A stretch of DNA of 9,302 nt, from IMG/VR virus record IMGVR_UViG_2537561977_000032; one strand, 5' to 3'. Each line of letters starts with the position of its first letter. The first letter of the stretch is position 1. Shown here piece after piece: positions 997-9,302 of the stretch. The translations under genes were made by a program, and so were the position numbers. Source of the DNA: a virus. Its lineage: Duplodnaviria > Heunggongvirae > Uroviricota > Caudoviricetes. The notes under the pieces are model-generated. The model was not told where the DNA came from. It ran no database searches and saw only the letters and a program-made list of their open reading frames with translations.

Positions 997-1200
997 TACG
1001 TATCCTTATACCTGAAATCTTCGCAAGTATGCCTGGCCGCGAGATTATGGCACACTTGTCCGGTTAACTCTCGTCTCATACAGGTAACACAAACGTGAAA
1101 ATCCTTGTTGATGAAAAAAACAAAGATTTAATTTATTGATATAAAAGGATTTGTATCAGCGTATGTCCACGCAGTGACCACATTTTCGAGAGGTAGAGTA

Positions 1201-1227
1201 AGCCCGCAACATTGCGGGCTTTGTCTT
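1201..1227. terminator. GC-rich hairpin next to the methyltransferase stop; possible intrinsic terminator
   Basis: Stem AGCCCGC(1201-1207) / GCGGGCT(1214-1220) with loop AACATT, followed on the plus strand by TTGTCTT. On the minus strand it lies directly after the methyltransferase TAA (1226-1228) but the downstream tract is pyrimidine-rich rather than a clean U-run. Confidence 0.4.
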
Positions 1228-2017
1228 ATGGTTCGATCGCCGTTTTGAGCCGTTGTGTTGCTACATCAAAATAATGATCACTGGTTTCTATACCAATAAA
1301 TTTTCGCCCTGCTTTCAGTGCAGCCACACCCGTTGTCCCTGACCCCATAAAAGGATCAAGGACTGTTCCGCCACTATTCACAGTCCTGACCAGTTCCGCC
1401 ATTAGTTCTTCTGGTTTTCCGGTCGGGTGCATTTTCTTTGACGGGATAACCGGGAACGTCATGCAGCCGTCGAACGGTCCCGAAGGCGATTTATCTAAAT
1501 GGCCTTTGCTGCCCCAGACGATGTATTCGCACTGATGCCGGAAATACCCGGTATGTGGTGTTCGTGACCCCCTCCCCTTGTTCCACGCAATGATTCCGCG
1601 CCATGTAAAGCCACTGGCCTGAAACGCATCGGTTAAAGCTGGTAGTTGTCGCCAGTCAGTAAATACCAGGGCATAACCGCCCGGCCTGACTGCGCGGTGT
1701 GCCTGTGCCATCCATAATTGTGTCCAGTAAGCCCACGAACGGGCGTCCATGTTTTCACCCGCGAACCCATCAAAGCGGTGAAGGTTCTCGCCGTTCAGAT
1801 ATTTTGCATGGCTGCCCTGGTTGGTGCGTCCGGCCTTGTGTGTCGCACCCGAACTGTAAGGCGGGTCAGTGATTAAGGCATCAATGCTTTCTGGCTCAAT
1901 CAGCGGCAATATTTCCAGCGCATTCCCACGACAGAGCGTGGCATTGTCAGTCTGATAAACCTTAGTGTGTTCCGGTGTATGTGCTGGTTGGTGCTGGATT
2001 GCGATCCCCACGGTCAT
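1226..2017 (-). CDS. DNA amino-methyltransferase (beta-class N6-adenine or N4-cytosine), probably orphan
   Basis: 263 aa ORF with catalytic motif IV DPPY (ALITDPPYSS) near the N-terminus and SAM-binding motif I FxGxG (LDPFMGSGTTG) near the C-terminus, the beta-class order. ATG at 2017 is preceded by GAGGAG with only a 2 nt spacer; GTG at codon 3 is an alternative start. No restriction endonuclease partner is visible in the window. Confidence 0.85.
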   Translation of the reverse strand: MTVGIAIQHQPAHTPEHTKVYQTDNATLCRGNALEILPLIEPESIDALITDPPYSSGATHKAGRTNQGSHAKYLNGENLHRFDGFAGENMDARSWAYWTQLWMAQAHRAVRPGGYALVFTDWRQLPALTDAFQASGFTWRGIIAWNKGRGSRTPHTGYFRHQCEYIVWGSKGHLDKSPSGPFDGCMTFPVIPSKKMHPTGKPEELMAELVRTVNSGGTVLDPFMGSGTTGVAALKAGRKFIGIETSDHYFDVATQRLKTAIEP

Positions 2018-2159
2018 AACTCCTCATGTGTGTGGGGTGCTCGATGGCTCTCGTTATCTGGTTAAGTGTTTTGCAGCGCGGACATTTTATTTCAATGTAG
2101 TGAAATGAGGCGCGGGCAAGTAGTTTGTTGCAATTTTTGCATCGTACATTTTGCGTCAT
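1962..2159 (-). CDS. com: Com-like zinc-finger protein (phage Mu Com family, translational activator)
   Basis: 65 aa from ATG at 2157-2159 with SD AAGAGGT 6 nt upstream; the ORF track starts it three codons earlier at GTG 2168. Sequence MTQNVRCKNCNKLLARASFHYIEIKCPRCK closely parallels Mu Com as I recall it (..IRCKNCNKLLFKADSFDHIEIRCPRCK..), a CxxC..CxxC zinc finger. Its 3' end overlaps the methyltransferase start by 56 nt, the same geometry as Mu com-mom. Confidence 0.8.
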   Translation of the reverse strand: MTQNVRCKNCNKLLARASFHYIEIKCPRCKTLNQITRAIEHPTHMRSYDRGDRNPAPTSTYTGTH

Positions 2160-2194
2160 TTGCGGCACCTCTTGTGTGGTTACTGCTGCCGATA

Positions 2195-2246
2195 TGATAG
2201 CAAATCGATCGTTTTTATCGATCGGATTTATTGCATTGATCTATCA
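2195..2246 (-). promoter_or_regulatory. Imperfect dyad with three GATC sites upstream of com-methyltransferase; candidate Dam-methylation-sensitive operator/promoter
   Basis: ATGATAGCAAATCGATCG-TTTTT-ATCGATCGGATTTATTGCATTGATCTATCAT: outer arms ATGATAG/CTATCAT, two palindromic ATCGATCG copies flanking T5, and GATC at 2207-2210, 2220-2223 and 2238-2241. AT-rich, located 35-90 bp upstream of the com start on the minus strand. Confidence 0.45.
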
Positions 2247-2297
2247 TTCCTATTGCTTATGAATAGTGTCACCTTCATTTGTGAGGGCAACAAAAAG

Positions 2298-2333
2298 AAA
2301 ACCCGCAGTTTTTACACTGCGGGTTTGTTGTTC
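2298..2333. terminator. Bidirectional rho-independent terminator
   Basis: Perfect 8 bp stem CCCGCAGT(2302-2309) / ACTGCGGG(2316-2323), loop TTTTAC, flanked by an A-run upstream and TTTGTTGTTC downstream on the plus strand. On the minus strand the stem is followed by TTTTCTTTTTGTT, so it should terminate ogr-side transcription before the com promoter region. Confidence 0.7.
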
Positions 2334-2743
2334 ATGTCTGTGAGATAGGGTGCCGTTTCGACCAACCTTAGCAACCGATTGACGGGGGATTACTCCCCCG
2401 TCGCGGTTATCTTACTTATTACATAGTAAGAATGCCGCAATTTCCGTGCCAGCAAACCTGAATCGTAACTCGCACGGTGATGTGTGGAGGATCCAGATTA
2501 TCGCTACCGCAGTTATGCAAAGTAACAGGGTTTTTAACGGAATTTGCGTCATAACGCTTGTCTCCTGAGAGGAGAGGCGCTAACCTTCTACTTGCGAAGG
2601 TAAGAAGTGTTAGGGCCTCGGTTAAACAAAAATGTTTTCCGGGGCCTTTCCACATCTGGCCTTCGGGTATTCCCTCCGACCATCAGCCGAAAGGCACCCG
2701 CGCGTAATCTATCGCTTTTTTGTTACTCCGGCAATTCTGCCTG

Positions 2744-3004
2744 TTAATTCTGAGATAAAGGCAAACTCATCTGATTGTTTCCCCTGTGTGAAGCTGGCAG
2801 ATCATGCCACGGGATACCTTCTGATGAGTGAACGCCGGAGGCGTGTTTTGATGTGAATTTATGGAAAGCTTCCAGTGTTGAGAAGCATACGCCGCATTCC
2901 AGATTGTTACACTGGTAATACTTTTGCCGCACGGTGTTTGAATCATTTTCCGGACGACTGGTGCGGATACGGGCAGATGCGCCACAAAGCGGACAACGGA
3001 ACAT
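2744..3004 (-). CDS. ogr: Ogr/Delta-family zinc-finger late-gene transcription activator
   Basis: 86 aa; ATG at 3002-3004 with SD GGGAGG 5 nt upstream. N-terminus MFRCPLCGASARIRTSR...YYQCNNLECGVCF has the C-x2-C ... C-x4-C zinc-finger pattern and the MF[HR]CPLC start typical of P2 Ogr and its relatives. Lies 42 bp downstream of gpD on the same strand, as in P2. Longer than P2 Ogr (about 72 aa) with a divergent C-terminal tail. Confidence 0.8.
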   Translation of the reverse strand: MFRCPLCGASARIRTSRPENDSNTVRQKYYQCNNLECGVCFSTLEAFHKFTSKHASGVHSSEGIPWHDLPASHRGNNQMSLPLSQN

Positions 3005-3046
3005 AGCGACCTCCCTTAACGTGGTGCTGCCGCTATTCTAAGTTGC

Positions 3047-4154
3047 TCACTCTGTTTCCGCTATCCATTCCGGGATTTTTGCCTCAAGCTCAAGCTGCGT
3101 GGTAAAGCCGCTGTTATCAATGGTGTGCCCGGCTTTTGCAATGATCCAGTCCTGATTATCAATCTCGCTTTTAAATCCTGTTACCGTGCCATGCATTTCG
3201 GGGTAGAGTTCTGCACGTCCACGCGCCAGCGTGATGGAGAATGATGCGGCTCCGCGTTGTAGTTGCTGCCACTTTGCCGCCGCTGCGCGTCTTGCTGCCT
3301 GCTCGTTCTGATAAGTCTTGCGTAACACAAACACATTGCCTTCCGCGCCTTCCATATAATCACCTTCACGGCTGCTGCTTTTCTCCTTTTTGGGTTTTGG
3401 CGGTTTACGGCGTTTCACGCTGACTTTTTCTTTTCCCGTAATTAAGATCAAGCCAGTAGGCGCGTACCCCCGTATACGCCTCGCGGTCAGCAATGCGGAA
3501 CTGATGGCGATCGCCGCTGCTGCGTGTAATGGCGAACGAGGGCAACGGCTGGCCCTGTGCGTTCACGCCACCACCTGGCATGATGAATAACAGATTGCCG
3601 CTTTTTACCGTGGTGATTGCGCCCAGCATTTCCGCCATGCGCGTAAGGAAGGACATGTCGCTTTCTTCGGTCTGGTCGGCGTGGTCGATTTCGATATCCA
3701 TCAGCATTTCGCTGATTTGCGGTTTCAGACCGTACCGGTGAGCGATGGCGGATACCACACGCTCAATGGTCACATCATGCCAGGACACCTCACGTTTAAC
3801 GTTAAATTCATCCCGAAAATCTGCGCTTCTGGCTGAAACAGTCAGCCTGTCCGGCGGTCCTTCGTGAGCGATTTCATCAACAATATAAGTGCCTTTTTCT
3901 GTCAGTGGTTCTCCTTTCCAGCCAATGAGAACCGTCAGGCGCGCGCCCCGTGGTGGTAGCTGCAACTGACCATCTGCATCATCCAGCGTGATGGTGAGCT
4001 GGTCCGCTTCAAATCCCCGGTTGTCGGTCAGTGACAGGCTCATCAGTCGCTCTGTCACGTCGGGCAGTGTTTCACCTTCCGCGAGAATATCAAAATCCGG
4101 CATTTTCACGGGGTCCGGGCCCTGACTGAGCAATTGCATGGTGGTGTCGGTCAT
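3047..4154 (-). pseudogene. D: gpD-like tail protein (phage late control gene D family), reading frame broken by a 1-nt shift in a homopolymer region
   Basis: Two overlapping minus-strand ORFs: N-part from ATG 4152-4154 (SD AGGGAGG upstream) to stop at 3405-3407, and C-part 3493-3047 in the adjacent frame. The C-part (GNVFVLRKTYQNEQAARRAAAAKWQQLQRG...TGFKSEIDNQDWIIAKAGHTIDNSGFTTQLELEAK) matches the conserved gpD C-terminal region from recall. Frames overlap at 3405-3493, where A/T runs (T5 at 3425-3429, T4 at 3431-3434) are the likely shift site. The track's upstream extension to 4286 (MIRQQ...) is not supported. Confidence 0.7.
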
Positions 4155-4311
4155 CTGTTCCCTCCCTGTGCGGCATGGTCGCATGTGCGTGCGGAGGGGG
4201 TTACTGCTTTTTGTTGTCGCCGTGGCGGGAGAACGGCGCAGGGGTGAGATTACGCGCGTGGTGGGTGATGATTGTTGCCGAATCATTTAACGGATACAAG
4301 GGGCTGAAGCT

Positions 4312-5496
4312 ATGAGTGAAACTCGTTTTCATGGTGCCCGTGTTACGGAAAGTACCAACCTGGTAACAGCGATTAATGATGTTGATTCCAGTGTTATCGG
4401 TATCGTGGCAACGGCGGATGATGCGGACGCGGAGCTGTTCCCGCTGAACAAGCCCACACTGCTGACCCGCGTCAATGACGTGCTGGGAAAATGCGGAACA
4501 ACGGGGACGCTTTATCGTGCGCTTAAGGCCATCGCAGACCAGGTGAGCACAAAGGTGATCGTCGTTCGCGTGGCTGAACACAAAGAAGAAGACGGAAAAA
4601 CGCAGGATCAACTGGTTATCGGTGGTTCTGAATCTGACGGCAGCTATACGGGGATGTATGCGCTGCTTGTTGCAGAGCAGGATGAAAGCATCGGATACCG
4701 TCCGCGTATTCTGGCCGCGCCGGAGCTGGACACGGAGGCGGTAACAAAATCCCTGTGCGTGATTGCAGGTAAACTGCGCGCGTTTGTGTATGCCTCATGT
4801 CACGGCTGTAACACGATGGCTGAGGCGATTACCTACCGCCAGAAATTCAACGAACGTGAGGTGATGCTCTTATGGCCGGACTTCATCGCCTGGAACCCGA
4901 AAAGTGGCAAAAACGAAACGTTCCCCGCGCCTGCCTATGCGTGCGGCCTTCGTGCGTACATTGACCATGAGCAGGGCTGGCACAAATCATTGTCCAACGT
5001 TCCGGTTAAAAATGTGCTGGGGATGTCGAGGCATGTGTTCTGGTCGTTGCAGGCCGAAGACAGCGATGCCAACAGCCTCAACAACAAAGAAATCACGACC
5101 ATTATTCGTCGTAACGGGTTCCGCTTCTGGGGCAACCGCACACCGGAAACGAACGCCTACATCTTTGAGGTGTATACCCGAACCGCACAGGTGCTGGCTG
5201 ATTCAATTGTGGAAGCGCAGTTTGAAACCATCGACAGTCCACTGACGCCTGCGAACGTGAAGGATGTTATCAGTGCCATCAGGGCAAAACTGGATTCACT
5301 GGTGACTGCCGGGAAACTGATTGGGGCGTCGTGCTGGTATGACGTGGTGGATAACGGCACCACGGATTTACGTCAGGGGCGCGTGCGTATTCGCTACAAA
5401 TATACGCCCGTTCCGCCACTGGAAGATATGGAGCTTTACCAGACGTTTACTGATGAATTCTTTGGTCCCGCATTTGCGGTGCTGGGAGGTGTCTGA
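4312..5496 (+). CDS. FI: Contractile tail sheath protein (P2 gpFI family)
   Basis: 394 aa, ATG 4312, stop TGA 5494-5496. Long collinear similarity to P2 FI as recalled (DADAE.FPLNKP, RPRILAAPELDT, KLRAF.Y, YRQ.F..RE.M..WPDF.AWN, QGWHK.LSNV, RRNGFRFWGNRT, YTRTAQV, Y.YTPVPPLE). Confidence 0.93.
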   Translation: MSETRFHGARVTESTNLVTAINDVDSSVIGIVATADDADAELFPLNKPTLLTRVNDVLGKCGTTGTLYRALKAIADQVSTKVIVVRVAEHKEEDGKTQDQLVIGGSESDGSYTGMYALLVAEQDESIGYRPRILAAPELDTEAVTKSLCVIAGKLRAFVYASCHGCNTMAEAITYRQKFNEREVMLLWPDFIAWNPKSGKNETFPAPAYACGLRAYIDHEQGWHKSLSNVPVKNVLGMSRHVFWSLQAEDSDANSLNNKEITTIIRRNGFRFWGNRTPETNAYIFEVYTRTAQVLADSIVEAQFETIDSPLTPANVKDVISAIRAKLDSLVTAGKLIGASCWYDVVDNGTTDLRQGRVRIRYKYTPVPPLEDMELYQTFTDEFFGPAFAVLGGV

Positions 5497-6007
5497 TGGC
5501 TGTACCAAAAAATCTTCGTTTTTTACGCTGTTTGTGGATGGTGAAAACGAAGTGGGTAAGGTGACGTCCGTCACTCTGCCTAAACTGACGCGCAAAACCG
5601 ACAGCTACCGGGGTGGTGGCATGATGGGGGCAGTAAGTATTGATCTCGGCCTGGACGACTCCGCGCTTGATGCGAGCTTTGTCATGGGGGGCGCAGTTCG
5701 TGAGTTGTTCCTGAAGTATGGCGGCACGATTGACGGTACGCTGCTGCGTTTTGCGGGTGAATACTACACCGACGCTGAAAGCGACCTGTATGAAGTCGAA
5801 ATGCGCGGACGTGTGACGGAAATTGATATGGGGGAAGCCAAACAGGGTGAGGCCACATCACACACTTACGCCATTAAAAACACCTACTACAAGCTGAGTG
5901 TTAACGATCGCCCGTTGTGGGAGATTGACCTGCTGAACTTCATTTACCGGAAGGACGGCAGGGACATTGTGCCCGATCGCATCCGTTCCGCGCTCGGGCT
6001 TGGCTGA
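5496..6007 (+). CDS. FII: Tail tube protein (P2 gpFII family); needs a -1 shift at 5519-5525 to be read full length
   Basis: ATG 5496-5498 overlaps the FI stop (TGATG) and has a perfect SD GGGAGG 6 nt upstream. Frame 0 gives MAVPKNLRF then stops after 22 codons; the -1 frame continues FTLFVDGENEVGKVTSVTLPKLTRK..SYRGGGM.GA...LGLDD to TGA 6005-6007. The joined product MAVPKNLRFFTLFVDG... fits the P2-type tube N-terminus (MA.P.KL.... LF.DG). The run at 5519-5524 has 6 T where 7 would keep one frame. Confidence 0.8.
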
Positions 6008-6061
6008 TAAGTAATATGCAGGCGGCGCAGTGCGTCGCCTCTGACTGAAAGGAGTTTCCTG

Positions 6062-6370
6062 ATGAAAGAGACGAAAAACATCGATACCGAAAACACGGTA
6101 GTTACTGACACTGTGAAAGAAACCAGTGAGCGTGGCGTAAAACTTACCCAACCAATTGAGCGAGGCGACGAAAAAATCACGTATGTGGAGATCTCCGGGG
6201 CTATTGAGCAGGCTGGTTCTCTGCGAGATTTGTCGCTGTCTGATGTGCTGAATCTGAAAGCGGAATCCATGTTTACGCTGCTGTCACGCGTGACATCACC
6301 GCGACTGGATGAAGTGACGATCAAAAAATGGCATCCCGTGACTTTATTCAGTTATGCGTGGTTGCCGTAA
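6062..6370 (+). CDS. E: Tail assembly chaperone E (P2 gpE family)
   Basis: 102 aa; ATG 6062 with SD AAAGGAG 7 nt upstream; position directly after FII and before the tape-measure gene. Acidic N-terminus and a ..RGDE.IT.V.. motif are consistent with gpE. Stop TAA 6368-6370. Confidence 0.75.
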   Translation: MKETKNIDTENTVVTDTVKETSERGVKLTQPIERGDEKITYVEISGAIEQAGSLRDLSLSDVLNLKAESMFTLLSRVTSPRLDEVTIKKWHPVTLFSYAWLP

Positions 6371-6589
6371 ATTTTTGAGCGGTGCGGACTCTGGCGGGAA
6401 GAACGAACAGGCGCCGGAAGCCTGATCACGGTTGTGTGCTTTGAGCACATAGAAGACTTTGTGGCAGATATTGCCGTTATTTTTAACTGGTCGCCCGCCG
6501 AAATCTTCATGATGACGCCCGGCGAAGTGGTTAGCTGGCGTGAGCGGGCGGCACTTCGCAGCGGGAATGCAGACAATGAAGACTCTTGA
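6371..6589 (+). other. E': E'-like extension ORF overlapping the start of T, but in the same frame as E (not -1)
   Basis: 73 sense codons straight after the E TAA, protein-like (IFERCGLWREERTGAGSLITVVCFEHIEDFVADIAVIFNWSPAEIFMMTPGEVVSWRERAALRSGNADNEDS), ending TGA 6587-6589 inside T. The sequence AAATTTTTG at 6369-6377 resembles the P2 E/E' slippery site TTTTTTG but sits in the +1 frame relative to E. Confidence 0.55.
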
Positions 6590-9302
6590 TATCCGGGTCG
6601 CTTTCAGCGCCGTTGACAGGCTGACCCGGCCTGCCGAAAACGCCCGCCGCCTGATGGGGCAGTTTGGTGACTCCATCCAGCGAACGCAGGGGGCGATCAA
6701 AAATCTCGAGCGTCAGGCGCGTTCATTTGAGCGCGCCCGTGACGCTGTCAGTAAAGCGGATGCGGGCATCGTGAAAGCACGACGCCAGCTTAACGCCCTT
6801 AATCAGTTACAACGCACGGGTACAGTGCTCAGCGAAAAACAACAAAAGCTGATGCAGCAGTTAAGCACCCGGCTTGAACGCCTGAATGAATCGCGCACAC
6901 GGGAAATTCAGAAAATGCGGGAGCTTGGCGGAGAGCTGAAACGCCACGGCATTTCCCTGACAGGCAGCGATAACACCATCCAGCAGGCCATCAGACGCAC
7001 CGGACAATACAACAACCAGCTTGAACGCGAACGGCGGGCGCTTGCGCGTGTAACGCAGGCGCGTGAGCGGTATTCACGCGCGCAGGAAACAGCGGGAAAA
7101 CTGAAAACAGGTGGTGCGCTGGCAACAGGTGCGGCGGCAGCTGGCGGCTATGCTGCCGGGCGTTTTTTGCAGCCCGCTATCGGGTTCGGCAAAGAGATGT
7201 CCCGCGTTCAGGCACTGACGCGAATCGACAAAAACAGCCCGCAGTTTAAGGCGCTGCGTGAGCAGGCGTTAAAACTTGGCTCTGAAACGCAGTTTACCGC
7301 AGGCGATGCCGCCAGTGGACAGGCATTTCTTGCAATGGCTGGCTTCACACCGCAGGCCATTCAGGCTGCGCTTCCCGGCGTGCTGAGCATGGCAACGGCT
7401 GGCGGTATGGATCTTGGCGAGACGGCGGATATTGGCTCAAATATCCTGACGCAGTTCGGCCTCTCTGCTGACCAGATGGACCGGGTTGGCGACACGCTTA
7501 CAGCAGCGTTTACCCGTACCAACACCGACCTTCGCGCACTGGGCGAAACCATGAAATATGCAGGCCCGGTGGCAGGTAAGCTGGGAATATCGCTGGAGCA
7601 GGCCGCTGCGATGGCGGGCGTGCTGGCGAATATGGGTATCAGGGGGAGTGATGCTGGCACAGCGTTGCGTAAAAGCCTTGCCAATCTGTCATCGCCGCCA
7701 AAGGCGGCAGCAGAAGCTCTGAAAGAGCTGGGCGTGTCTGTCTCCGATGCCGGGGGCAAAATGCGCCCGATGGAAGATCTGCTGGCTGACCTTTATAAAG
7801 CCACCCGCAAATACGGGGAGGTTGACCGGGTATCGTTCTTTAAGGACATCGCCGGAGGAGAGGCTTTTACATCGTTTATGGCTCTTGTTGATGCGGCAGG
7901 TAACGGCTCCTTACCCAAACTGAGAAAAGAACTTGAAGGCGCACGCGGTGAGGCTGAACGCACGGCAAAGGTTATGGCCGACAACCTTGACGGCGATCTG
8001 AAATCACTTGGCAGTGCATGGGAAGGGCTTCGTATCCGCATTGCAGATCTGATTGACGGTCCGCTGCGTTCTGTCACGCAGTGGCTCACGCGGATAGTCT
8101 CAAAAGTGACGGCGCTGGCGCAGGCCCATCCGGCACTGACGCGCCAGTTACTGATAGCGGGAGGCGCACTGCTGGCGACAACAGCAACGGTTGGTTCGTT
8201 GTCTCTGGTTATTGGGGTGCTTCACGGGAAGCTGGCCACCTTGCGTCTTGGTTTTGACATTCTTACCCGGTCAATGAATGTCGTCAGGGTGCTGCCTGCG
8301 CTGTGGGGAATGGTGACGGGTTCTGTTTCTTTGCTGGGAGGCGCTATCGGGGCGCTGTTCAGTCCGGTTGGTCTTATCGTGGCTGCGCTTGCCGGAGCTG
8401 CCGTTCTCATCTGGAAATACTGGGATCCCATCAGGGCATTTTTTGCCGGGGTGTTCAACGGGATTATGGAGCGGCTGGCCCCGTTGCGCGAAACCTTTGA
8501 ACGGTTCGGTCCTGTTTTTGATGTCGTGCGCGATGGGATTATTCAGGTCTTTAACTGGTTTAAATCGCTGCTGTCACCGATGGAGTCCAGCAAGGAAACG
8601 CTGGATAAATGCACCAGTGCTGGCGAGATATTCGGTAACGTTCTTGGTGGCGCGTTACAGCTTGTTCTGACGCCTGCAAAAATGTTGCTGGATACGCTGG
8701 CGTGGATACTTGAAAAGCTCGGAGTTCTTCCGGATGAAGCGGAAAGGGCGAGAAAGAAAATCGAAGATGCACAGCGTGCGGCCATTCTTCAGGACAGGGT
8801 TGCTCTGCTTCAGGGGGACCTGGCGAAAATCAATCCGCCGAAGTCTGCGGGAAATGGCACCGGAGGCGATAAACCCAAAGACAACAAACCGCTCACAGAC
8901 AGCAATACCGGCACATTACGCAGGCTCAGCAAAATTGCTGATAACACAGGTAAGCTGGTTGAGGAGACGAAACGTATTGGCCCCGGCGATATTGTCTTTA
9001 AGAACCTGCCCCGCGCACTTGCTGTTCGTGGGGAGTGGCAGGAGCAGAAGATTGCGCAGGTCAGTAAGCCTGCCCCCGCAATTAATATCACACCCGTGGT
9101 CCCGGCTCCGCTGCCTCCGGCGCTGGTCCCTGTTGTTGCGGCCAGCTCCCGCCCGGTGGCGGAGGCCATACGATCGCCAGTAGCATCAGTTCCTGCAACT
9201 TCCCGTAACCGGGAGCCTGTTGCCTCCGGATTTGGCGGTGAAATTCATGTTCATCTGCATAACGTTGTTACGCAGAATCCCCGCGAACTGGCGAAACTGG
9301 TC
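6576..9302 (+). CDS. T: Tail tape measure protein (P2 gpT family), 3'-truncated by the window edge
   Basis: Uninterrupted sense frame from ATG 6576 (alternative in-frame ATG at 6567) to the end of the window, at least 909 codons. Absent from the ORF track because no stop is reached. Coiled-coil-like, Q/R/E/A-rich N-terminal third (MKTLDIRVAFSAVDRLTRPAENARRL...), central G/A-rich hydrophobic segments (LLIAGGALLATTATVGSLSLVIGVL; GAIGALFSPVGLIVAALAGAAVLIW), and position after E/E' are typical of tape-measure proteins. Confidence 0.85.
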   Translation, partial: MKTLDIRVAFSAVDRLTRPAENARRLMGQFGDSIQRTQGAIKNLERQARSFERARDAVSKADAGIVKARRQLNALNQLQRTGTVLSEKQQKLMQQLSTRLERLNESRTREIQKMRELGGELKRHGISLTGSDNTIQQAIRRTGQYNNQLERERRALARVTQARERYSRAQETAGKLKTGGALATGAAAAGGYAAGRFLQPAIGFGKEMSRVQALTRIDKNSPQFKALREQALKLGSETQFTAGDAASGQAFLAMAGFTPQAIQAALPGVLSMATAGGMDLGETADIGSNILTQFGLSADQMDRVGDTLTAAFTRTNTDLRALGETMKYAGPVAGKLGISLEQAAAMAGVLANMGIRGSDAGTALRKSLANLSSPPKAAAEALKELGVSVSDAGGKMRPMEDLLADLYKATRKYGEVDRVSFFKDIAGGEAFTSFMALVDAAGNGSLPKLRKELEGARGEAERTAKVMADNLDGDLKSLGSAWEGLRIRIADLIDGPLRSVTQWLTRIVSKVTALAQAHPALTRQLLIAGGALLATTATVGSLSLVIGVLHGKLATLRLGFDILTRSMNVVRVLPALWGMVTGSVSLLGGAIGALFSPVGLIVAALAGAAVLIWKYWDPIRAFFAGVFNGIMERLAPLRETFERFGPVFDVVRDGIIQVFNWFKSLLSPMESSKETLDKCTSAGEIFGNVLGGALQLVLTPAKMLLDTLAWILEKLGVLPDEAERARKKIEDAQRAAILQDRVALLQGDLAKINPPKSAGNGTGGDKPKDNKPLTDSNTGTLRRLSKIADNTGKLVEETKRIGPGDIVFKNLPRALAVRGEWQEQKIAQVSKPAPAINITPVVPAPLPPALVPVVAASSRPVAEAIRSPVASVPATSRNREPVASGFGGEIHVHLHNVVTQNPRELAKLV

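Follow-up and report, generated by a model that had tools for sequence, protein, structure and literature searches.

A predicted hok/sok-family type I toxin-antitoxin cassette between ogr and the attachment site of a P88-like Escherichia coli prophage

The hok/sok (parB) locus of plasmid R1, which is the reference for the element described here, has been reported to stabilise plasmids and to exclude phage T4. The element itself is found in a 9,302 nt stretch of DNA (the window) from the Caudoviricetes virus record IMGVR_UViG_2537561977_000032, where positions 2334-2743 had been described, in a reading made from the sequence only, as hairpin-dense and without a convincing gene. We consider that the window at approximately 2292-2734 is very probably a type I toxin-antitoxin (TA) cassette of the hok/sok family, carried as a moron between ogr and the end of the prophage that holds a com-methylase gene pair and the attachment (att) site. 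In R1 and in hokC, an ATG 6-7 nt after a GAGGC sequence opens the mok frame, and translation of mok as far as the hok Shine-Dalgarno (SD) sequence is required for Hok to be made (PMC9841398). The hokW-sokW locus of the Stx2 prophage Sp5 acts as a type I TA system, with faster release of Sp5 after mitomycin C induction, and upon this induction Sok is lost and Hok appears in a RecA-dependent manner (PMC8621323). A 2026 catalogue of Hok proteins, from which Mok, Sok, and the structure of the mRNA were deliberately set aside, reports that hok is enriched in prophages, and 45 Hok homologues were tested there for toxicity, of which 3 are reported as non-toxic (bioRxiv 10.1101/2025.08.07.668861).

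The toxin gene was not among the open reading frames (ORFs) listed in the sequence-only reading, in which a 78 aa ORF on the minus strand and a 74 aa ORF on the plus strand were the only candidates.

2412-2552, minus strand: hok toxin gene, 46 aa, MTQIPLKTLLLCITAVAIIWILHTSPCELRFRFAGTEIAAFLLCNK; called from Pfam HOK_GEF, the RefSeq annotation, and conservation

The ATG of this ORF has a GGAG 9 nt upstream. The translation passes Pfam PF01848 HOK_GEF (33.8 bits against a cut-off of 22, with 36 of the 42 profile positions covered), and it keeps the Cys-x-Thr, the Cys-Glu, and the Glu that are conserved in the family logo (compared with bioRxiv 10.1101/2025.08.07.668861). The HokA and Hok models of NCBIfam match far under their cut-offs, at 27.7 against 89 bits for the HokA equivalog, and the 46 aa protein is a member of the Hok family and not HokA itself. 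It is 35% identical to Hok of R1 over 34 residues and 36% identical to HokC. In RefSeq there is a 'Hok/Gef family protein' (WP_032140709.1) at the corresponding position of a strain with DNA that is identical over 2334-2743, and the homologous coding sequences (CDSs) of phages P88 and Chuche are annotated as hok/gef or as a 'MokW-like host killing' protein. 'MokW-like' is here an annotation label for the P88 and Chuche CDSs and is no evidence for a mok. No PADLOC model matches the Hok peptide. Small type I toxin genes are easily missed by eye; here the ORF is under the usual length cut-offs and is overlapped by a longer decoy ORF.

Relatives of the locus were taken from annotated phages and plasmids and from a scan of IMG/VR with a 20-mer of the 5' end of the mRNA, giving 88 full-length copies, 70 of them distinct; 41 representatives are used for the counts of base pairing given below and 40 for the counts of promoters. 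The hok ORF is intact in 69 of the 70 distinct relatives and its variable sites fall 26, 17, and 35 on codon positions 1, 2, and 3, which is the periodicity of a coding sequence. Two peptides of the set that was cloned for toxicity, 72_1621 and 72_1589, neither of which is among the three non-toxic ones (bioRxiv 10.1101/2025.08.07.668861), are identical, in the part of the catalogue covered, to the Hok of close DNA relatives of the window locus. The exact peptide of the window (MTQIPLK...) is not present in the part of the catalogue supplements covered.

Five hairpins had been listed in the stretch, GACGGGGG-ATTACT-CCCCCGTC at 2381-2402, TCTTACT-N8-AGTAAGA at 2410-2431, CTCC-TGAGA-GGAG at 2562-2574, ACCTTC-N7-GAAGGT at 2583-2601, and a long imperfect one at 2612-2647 (hairpins 1 to 5). 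All five are indeed there, and all five correspond to known hok/sok elements. From the start of the transcription unit to its end, the features on the hok strand are as follows.

2729-2734, minus strand: hok promoter -35, TTGCCG; 17 nt upstream of the -10, with the TTG kept in most of the 40 relatives
2706-2711, minus strand: hok promoter -10, TAGATT; aligns with the TATAAT of K-12 hokC, 6 nt before GGGTGC
2292-2699, minus strand: predicted full-length hok mRNA, ~408 nt, starting with GGGUGCC... and ending in the U-run past the terminator, both ends being predictions
2682-2699, minus strand: tac-like 5' element, GGGUGCCUUUCGGCUGAU; partner in the minimum free energy (MFE) fold 2366-2348, alternative partner 2650-2641
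2641-2650, minus strand: ucb-like box, GAAAGGCCCC; alternative partner of the mRNA 5' end
2614-2646, both strands: predicted Sok-target stem-loop of the mRNA and, on the plus strand, predicted Sok terminator (hairpin 5); matches the annotated K-12 SokC hairpin
2615-2619, minus strand: GAGGC, homologue of the canonical mok SD as aligned by the Rfam model; then GAGGCCCUAAC, with no start codon
2583-2601, minus strand: leader hairpin ACCUUC-N7-GAAGGU (hairpin 4), within the region complementary to the Sok 5' tail
2574-2578, minus strand: dcb-like box GCCUC, open-form partner of GAGGC; adjoins the anti-SD at C2574
2562-2574, minus strand: hairpin of the anti-SD CUCC (2574-2571) with the SD GGAG (2565-2562) (hairpin 3)
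2410-2431, minus strand: stop-codon hairpin over the last hok codons (hairpin 2); 83.8% of cells paired in the 41 relatives
2381-2402, minus strand: GC-rich 3' stem-loop (hairpin 1), between the hok stop and the fbi-like element
2348-2366, minus strand: fbi-like 3' element, GUUGGUCGAAACGGCACCC; pairs with the mRNA 5' end
2299-2326, minus strand: intrinsic terminator of the hok mRNA and of any read-through from ogr; 11 bp stem then U-run, past the fbi-like element

The -35 of hok was placed by its conservation and by its position relative to those of hokC and R1, being below the threshold of the consensus scan. Among the 40 relatives, which come from unrelated genomic contexts, the sequence upstream of it diverges completely. 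The -10 is TAGATT, TAAATT, TAGAAT, or TACATT, with T1, A2, A4, and T6 the same in all, and 39 of the 40 have a 17 nt spacer. The 5' end of the mRNA (near G2699) aligns with position 1 of Rfam RF01794.

The structure of the stretch is well beyond chance. For the 408 nt minus-strand RNA (2699 to 2292) the folding energy is -171.8 kcal/mol, while 100 dinucleotide shuffles give -115.2 +/- 6.0 (z = -9.45) and none of them is as good. The plus-strand segment 2590-2655 has a z of -5.56, and 1900-3200 holds 6 terminator-like hairpins against an expectation of 1.9. The MFE structure of the window, when mapped on the 41 representatives, has 79.9% of cells paired, against 36-45% when the partners are slid by 1-3 columns, and the open, alternative structure is as conserved as the closed one. 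The mRNA is predicted to close by pairing of its 5' and 3' ends, as does tac with fbi in the R1 hok mRNA. The 18 bp end-to-end tac/fbi helix has 92.3% of its cells paired across the 41 relatives, and 9 of its 18 pairs have a change on one side with the pairing kept. The tac/ucb stem, 98.8% paired with little variation, is present in the folds of nascent RNAs of 62 nt and 90 nt, and enforcing this open form upon the 3'-truncated RNA costs 3.6 kcal/mol.

Within the leader, the GGCCCC/GAGGCC stem of the hairpin at 2614-2646 is kept in approximately 40 of the 41 relatives, while its loop and upper stem vary. The GAGGC/GCCUC pairs, which like tac/ucb are part of the consensus structure in Rfam, are kept in 40 of the 41, and the 17 bp helix that contains them has 82.5% of cells paired, with 8 pairs changed on both sides. 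The CUCC...GGAG pairing over the SD is kept as well (73.8%), and is flanked by a UAGCGC/GCGYUA helix that reaches the A of the start codon (98.4%). The most variable part of the leader is the hairpin at 2583-2601 (64.5% of cells paired). Beyond the hok stop, all 9 pairs of the 3' stem-loop are formed in 100% of cells, and 4 of them have compensatory double changes in 6-14 sequences. In the truncated hok mRNA of R1 the last stem-loop is protective (PMC9841398) and, by analogy, the stem-loop at 2402-2381 is likely to be the 3' end of a processed, truncated hok mRNA. The terminator follows the fbi-like element, an order seen also in the R1-type locus, and is common to P88, whose homology with the window sets in at 2292, immediately past it; the terminator thus belongs to the hok unit. 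In other genomic contexts of the cassette the terminators differ.

The antitoxin is expected on the other strand.

2594-2652, plus strand: predicted Sok RNA, ~59 nt, with predicted ends; ~20 nt 5' tail, terminator hairpin, and UUUCC
2558-2586, plus strand: predicted Sok promoter; -35 TTGTCT (2558-2563), 17 nt spacer, -10 TAACCT (2581-2586), start near 2593-2594

The position and size of this RNA match those of the annotated 59 nt SokC of K-12, it folds as a tail plus a hairpin (-29.8 kcal/mol), and it is fully complementary to nt 48-106 of the hok mRNA (59 nt). Its -10, TAACCT, is invariant in all 40 relatives, as is the TTG of the -35, with a spacer of 16-17 nt. The promoter is in the same place as the TTGCGC-17-TATCCT of the R1-type locus and, with 7 of 12 positions, is weak in relation to the consensus. 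Both the hok and the Sok promoter are called from conservation only. The leader varies most in the complement of the Sok 5' tail, and this fits with cognate recognition, in which each Sok would act on its own hok. In most members the loop that faces the 5' end of Sok has what can be read as a YUNR U-turn motif, but this is too short and was not used as evidence.

Rfam RF01794 (sok) aligns end to end with the minus strand at 2699-2541 (E = 2.4e-9). Its scores for copies of the present type in P88 (47.9 bits), an Stx2 phage (42.1 bits), and an E. marmotae plasmid (45.2 bits) can be set against those for K-12 hokC (118.3 bits) and the R1-type locus (87.2 bits). With scores of 42-48 against 87-118 bits, this is a diverged subfamily, which the Rfam threshold misses. 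The family that is named 'sok antitoxin' matches the strand of the hok mRNA, from the 5' end of the leader to the start of hok, and not the strand of Sok. As the model has the polarity of the hok leader, the strand of its matches has to be reversed for the antitoxin to be placed.

By blastn, 2334-2743 has matches in 1749 of 5426 complete E. coli genomes, about a third, at up to 9 places per genome, as well as in 198 phage records; the annotation at the matches, where there is any, is 'Hok/Gef family protein' or 'MokW-like host killing'. Thirty records of complete E. coli genomes carry the locus with an identity of at least 99%. Copies are found after ogr in P2-like phages, in P88-like, lambdoid, and Stx phages, on plasmids, and beside serS, many of them without an ogr. 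Across these unrelated contexts conservation begins at the hok -35 and ends just past the fbi-like element, and the same limits in unrelated places indicate a mobile cassette of ~390 bp. The limits of 2334-2743 that had been proposed for the stretch nearly fit this cassette, with the unit of the window running slightly past them to include the terminator at 2326-2299. In some genomes there are two tandem copies of this hok subfamily, 450-720 bp apart, with one such pair beside serS. One IMG/VR copy is similar over the promoter and the initial ~40 nt of the hok mRNA and not beyond, and appears truncated or disrupted.

The recurrence of the cassette bears on the suggestion that the stretch is a structured RNA co-transcribed with ogr. 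As a rival explanation this would make it a non-coding RNA with no toxin function, either a 3' continuation of the ogr transcript or an independent small RNA (sRNA). The strong structure is in keeping with such an RNA, and so is the terminator scan, in which the first terminator past the ogr stop (2746-2744) is that at 2326-2299 and none precedes the hok promoter, so that transcripts from ogr should run through the region. Against this stand the same cassette limits in many places that have no ogr, the conserved promoter hexamers of its own, and the Pfam-positive ORF that is evolving as coding sequence, which together make this explanation very improbable. What holds of the suggestion is that a structured mRNA is encoded here, along with the predicted antisense Sok, and that read-through from ogr could add to it; a mere ogr co-transcript does not fit a unit with conserved promoters of its own.

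In the R1 and hokC loci the leader also carries mok, and two longer ORFs overlap the hok/sok region of the window.

2419-2655, minus strand: 78 aa ORF, in another frame than hok, at the place of the mok frame; probably not a conserved gene
2632-2856, plus strand: 74 aa ORF, antisense into ogr

Both ORFs exist as described in the sequence-only reading. That either of them is the real gene of this region has in its favour a GAAGG 4 nt before the ATG of the 78 aa ORF, and that this frame is kept in a few near-identical copies of the window variant. Neither ORF has a match in Pfam or NCBIfam; the protein homologue looked for belongs instead to the 46 aa ORF that overlaps the 78 aa one, and the 74 aa ORF has its antisense placement over ogr against it. 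The 78 aa frame begins at an invariant AUG (2655), upstream of the Sok-target hairpin and not after GAGGC, and in 8 of 10 relatives the frame opened by this AUG closes after 1-19 codons. The leader has no codon periodicity in the AUG frame (18, 16, and 18), and the distance from the AUG to hok varies between 101 and 107 nt, by differences that are not multiples of 3. It is therefore highly unlikely that either ORF is the gene of the region. The 78 aa ORF is most likely incidental, while it could be in use in the window's own lineage.

The invariant AUG at 2655 was also considered as the start of a short mok-like leader ORF. This was rejected, as the frame meets an immediate stop in two relatives and is 8-19 codons long in most, ending well before the hok SD, and the AUG itself sits in a conserved helix.

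In the window GAGGC is followed by CCUAAC, without a start codon there. Among the 70 distinct relatives, 30 have any ATG, GTG, or TTG frame that crosses the start of hok, and these begin variously at nt 17, 45, 47, and 101-103. As a positive control, phage loci of the hokC/D/W type were fetched in the same way and processed with the same script; here 78 of the 87 distinct copies have a crossing frame, and in 75 the ATG follows GAGGC by 6-7 nt. From these sequence comparisons we conclude that the 46 aa Hok subfamily is without a conserved mok. The absence of mok lowers the case for regulation exactly like that of R1, and not that for membership of the family by toxin or by RNA architecture.

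By analogy with R1 (PMC9841398), the full-length hok mRNA would be stable, translationally inert, and poor at binding Sok, and slow trimming of the 3' end to the 2402-2381 stem-loop would strip off the fbi-like element. The 5' end of the mRNA would then refold onto the ucb-like box, with opening of the base of the Sok-target hairpin and pairing of GAGGC with GCCUC. A constitutive, unstable Sok would pair with nt 48-106 of the leader, which would keep hok silent and leave the duplex open to RNase III. Were the supply of Sok to stop, Hok would be made and, again as in R1, the inner membrane would be permeabilised. The open form should loosen the hok initiation site directly, because GCCUC adjoins both the CUCC that covers the SD and the UAGCGC that pairs with GCGUUA at the AUG, and Sok on nt 48-106 should return that segment to the SD and AUG. 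This would be a three-way switch, in which Sok captures GAGGCCCUAAC..., freeing GGUUAGCGCCUCUCC, which then locks the hok SD and AUG.

Partition function calculations give a more accessible hok AUG in the open form for 37 of 40 relatives, and a renewed drop for 39 of 40 once the Sok target is blocked; the window itself goes from 0.28 to 0.86 in the open form and to 0.21 with the target blocked. With no conserved mok frame in the subfamily, Sok probably controls hok through the RNA switch itself and not through a leader ORF, with GAGGC...GCCUC set against CUCC/GGAG and UAGCGC/GCGUUA. The further proposal, that the 46 aa subfamily is a mok-less variant of hok/sok in which GAGG is kept purely as an RNA-pairing element and Sok silences hok directly, is made tentatively, and we would put it somewhat below an even chance.

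For the phage, read-through from D and ogr into hok is plausible because the three genes are co-oriented with no terminator between them. Read-through from the late operon could raise the level of hok RNA and run against the Sok promoter, tying the release of Hok to lytic development. The benefit to the phage may be stabilisation of the prophage, help with lysis on induction, as for hokW-sokW, or the abortion of superinfection.

Several observations weigh against a functional hok/sok cassette, or against parts of the model. The Hok of the window has a Pro before the conserved Cys-Glu where the family logo has Leu. RF01794 scores 47.0 bits in the window against a gathering threshold of 59, so that there is no match at gathering level. 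A σ70 consensus scan reported neither the hok nor the Sok promoter, both being weak in relation to the consensus, and all of the transcript ends of the two RNAs are inferred. The unconstrained MFE of the 3'-truncated RNA is not in the open form, which has to be enforced. For the tac helices the support is kept pairing and not covariation, because the 5' 20 nt are fixed by the search pattern and almost invariant. The shifts in accessibility are small across the subfamily, with means for the AUG of 0.22 closed, 0.37 open, and 0.19 with the Sok target blocked, and a mean for the SD that goes from 0.23 to 0.26. The prophage is possibly defective, its gpD being frameshifted.

Several chromosomal hok loci of K-12 have been inactivated. 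With these as precedents, the locus might be a remnant, recognisable as hok and no longer toxic or regulated, and the frameshifted gpD, the Pro for the conserved Leu, and the missing canonical mok start could all be taken to agree with this. However, the hok ORF is intact, as are its SD, the two promoters, the four elements tac, fbi, ucb, and dcb, and the 3' stem-loop, and constraint is visible in the ORF kept in 69 of 70 relatives, in its codon periodicity, and in the compensatory changes of the stems. The Ser-Pro-Cys-Glu motif is also present in other intact variants of the subfamily, and alanine replacement of conserved residues in the Hok of R1 left its toxicity in place (bioRxiv 10.1101/2025.08.07.668861). 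The identity of at least 99% in the 30 genome records also speaks against decay. An inactive remnant is therefore unlikely, though less so than the other alternatives, and the earlier suggestion of a decayed gene is unsupported, as every RNA element tested is intact along with the ORF. The reading of the locus as a hok/sok TA cassette is retained.

By nucleotide comparison the source of the window is a P88-like (Xuanwuvirus, Peduoviridae) E. coli prophage. Window 1098-9302 is collinear with the free phage Chuche, which has the genes in the order int - attP - methylase - com - hok - ogr - D and whose repressor and integrase sit immediately left of the position that matches window 1098. Homology with E. 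coli K-12, which takes in flk, the spacer between flk and pdxB, and the initial 22 nt of pdxB, extends to window 1117. As K-12 homology ends at 1117 and Chuche homology begins at 1098, the att core can be placed.

1099-1117: att core, AAAATCCTTGTTGATGAAA; 19 bp common to the K-12 and Chuche homology, in the 5' end of pdxB

The core is ~1.2 kb left of 2334-2743, and the hok stretch is internal phage DNA. In P2, ogr adjoins att. It had been suggested on this basis that the stretch is the right end of the prophage, with attR and the host junction, and the textbook arrangement of P2 and the end of P88 homology at window 2292 would both agree with such a position. The junction of phage and host, with its shared core, is instead at 1098-1117, Chuche has int and attP immediately left of 1098, and the region recurs in lambdoid and Stx phages, on plasmids, and beside serS, as an att junction would not. 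The suggestion is refuted by these homologies, and the chance that the stretch is a prophage end is negligible. Rfam at gathering threshold and ARAGORN find no known sRNA, tRNA, or tmRNA integration target in the whole window.

The integration site of the prophage is the first 22 nt of pdxB. In the attP of Chuche there is an AGGAG-N7-TTG in frame with the core, and at the other junction, outside of the window, pdxB could thereby gain 8 additional codons and a start that comes from the phage.

Between the hok terminator and att there is a com-methyltransferase pair, which is present in Chuche and not in P88, where homology with the window begins just past the hok terminator. It consists of a Mu Com-like zinc-ribbon gene (1962-2168, minus strand; Pfam Zn_ribbon_Com), overlapping the start of the methyltransferase gene, and an N6/N4 DNA methyltransferase gene (1226-2017, minus strand), for which the best PADLOC match is a type II methyltransferase. 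Just upstream of com a hairpin palindrome at 2205-2225 (plus strand, TCGATCG-TTTTTAT-CGATCGG) has a terminator-like score on both strands, and could be an operator or a terminator for com.

On the other side of hok, gpD (3050-4154, minus strand) is in two frames in comparison with the 369 aa gpD of Chuche. The break is in 3372-3433, at a lysine/poly-A run, and could be a real frameshift, in a defective prophage, or a homopolymer sequencing error. In P2, D, ogr, and the sheath-tube-E-tape-measure genes all read in one direction. In the window D, ogr, and hok are on the minus strand (D and ogr at 2744-4290), divergent from the plus-strand sheath-tube-E-tape-measure genes (4312-9302).

The stretch is therefore explained as a TA cassette, being neither a prophage end nor a new RNA, and the true att core has been placed. 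The element belongs to a long-known family and is already annotated in public records; the sole modestly new point is the possible mok-independent control of hok. As the sok threshold of Rfam misses the subfamily, the antitoxin lacks an annotation also in places where the toxin has one. Should the absence of the mok frame hold, the subfamily would be a natural test of the generality of the R1 model, in which Sok acts only through mok. It would also be a convenient system for the study of what hok/sok brings to temperate phages, be it stabilisation, the timing of lysis, or exclusion.

In comparison with the known systems, the window locus is like R1 hok/sok in having a small hydrophobic Hok/Gef toxin and an mRNA of ~400 nt, the 5' end of which pairs with a box before the 3' terminator. 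It also shares with R1 the stem of the 5' end with ucb, the GAGGC/GCCUC stem (mok SD/dcb), and a putatively protective 3' stem-loop (PMC9841398), as well as a predicted antisense RNA of ~60 nt that consists of a 5' tail and a terminator hairpin and would be read from a promoter placed between this hairpin and the hok start. It differs from R1 in the length of the toxin (46 aa against 52 aa), in its diverged leader (47 bits in Rfam against 87 for the R1-type locus), and in being phage-borne where R1 hok/sok is plasmid-borne. There is no ATG after GAGGC, and hence no canonical mok start, and no overlapping frame is conserved in the subfamily, whereas hok of the window has a good SD of its own, GGAG, paired with the upstream CUCC. 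With K-12 hokC-mokC-sokC and the other loci of the hokC/D/W type it shares the layout, the GGGUGC 5' end 6 nt after the -10, and a predicted Sok at the place of the 59 nt SokC, and with hokW-sokW its carriage on a prophage. The toxins of the hokC/D/W type are 50-51 aa (MKQ[HQ]KAM...) and 36% identical to that of the window, with leaders that score 118 bits in Rfam, and these loci keep the mok frame (78 of 87 distinct copies), which the subfamily of the window does not. In the part of the Hok catalogue covered, the closest likeness is to 'cluster 72' (bioRxiv 10.1101/2025.08.07.668861), of which 72_1621 and 72_1589 are in the same 46 aa subfamily and have the same mRNA leader. The window peptide is ~50% identical to 72_1621 by our own count, which would place it outside a cluster drawn at 60%.

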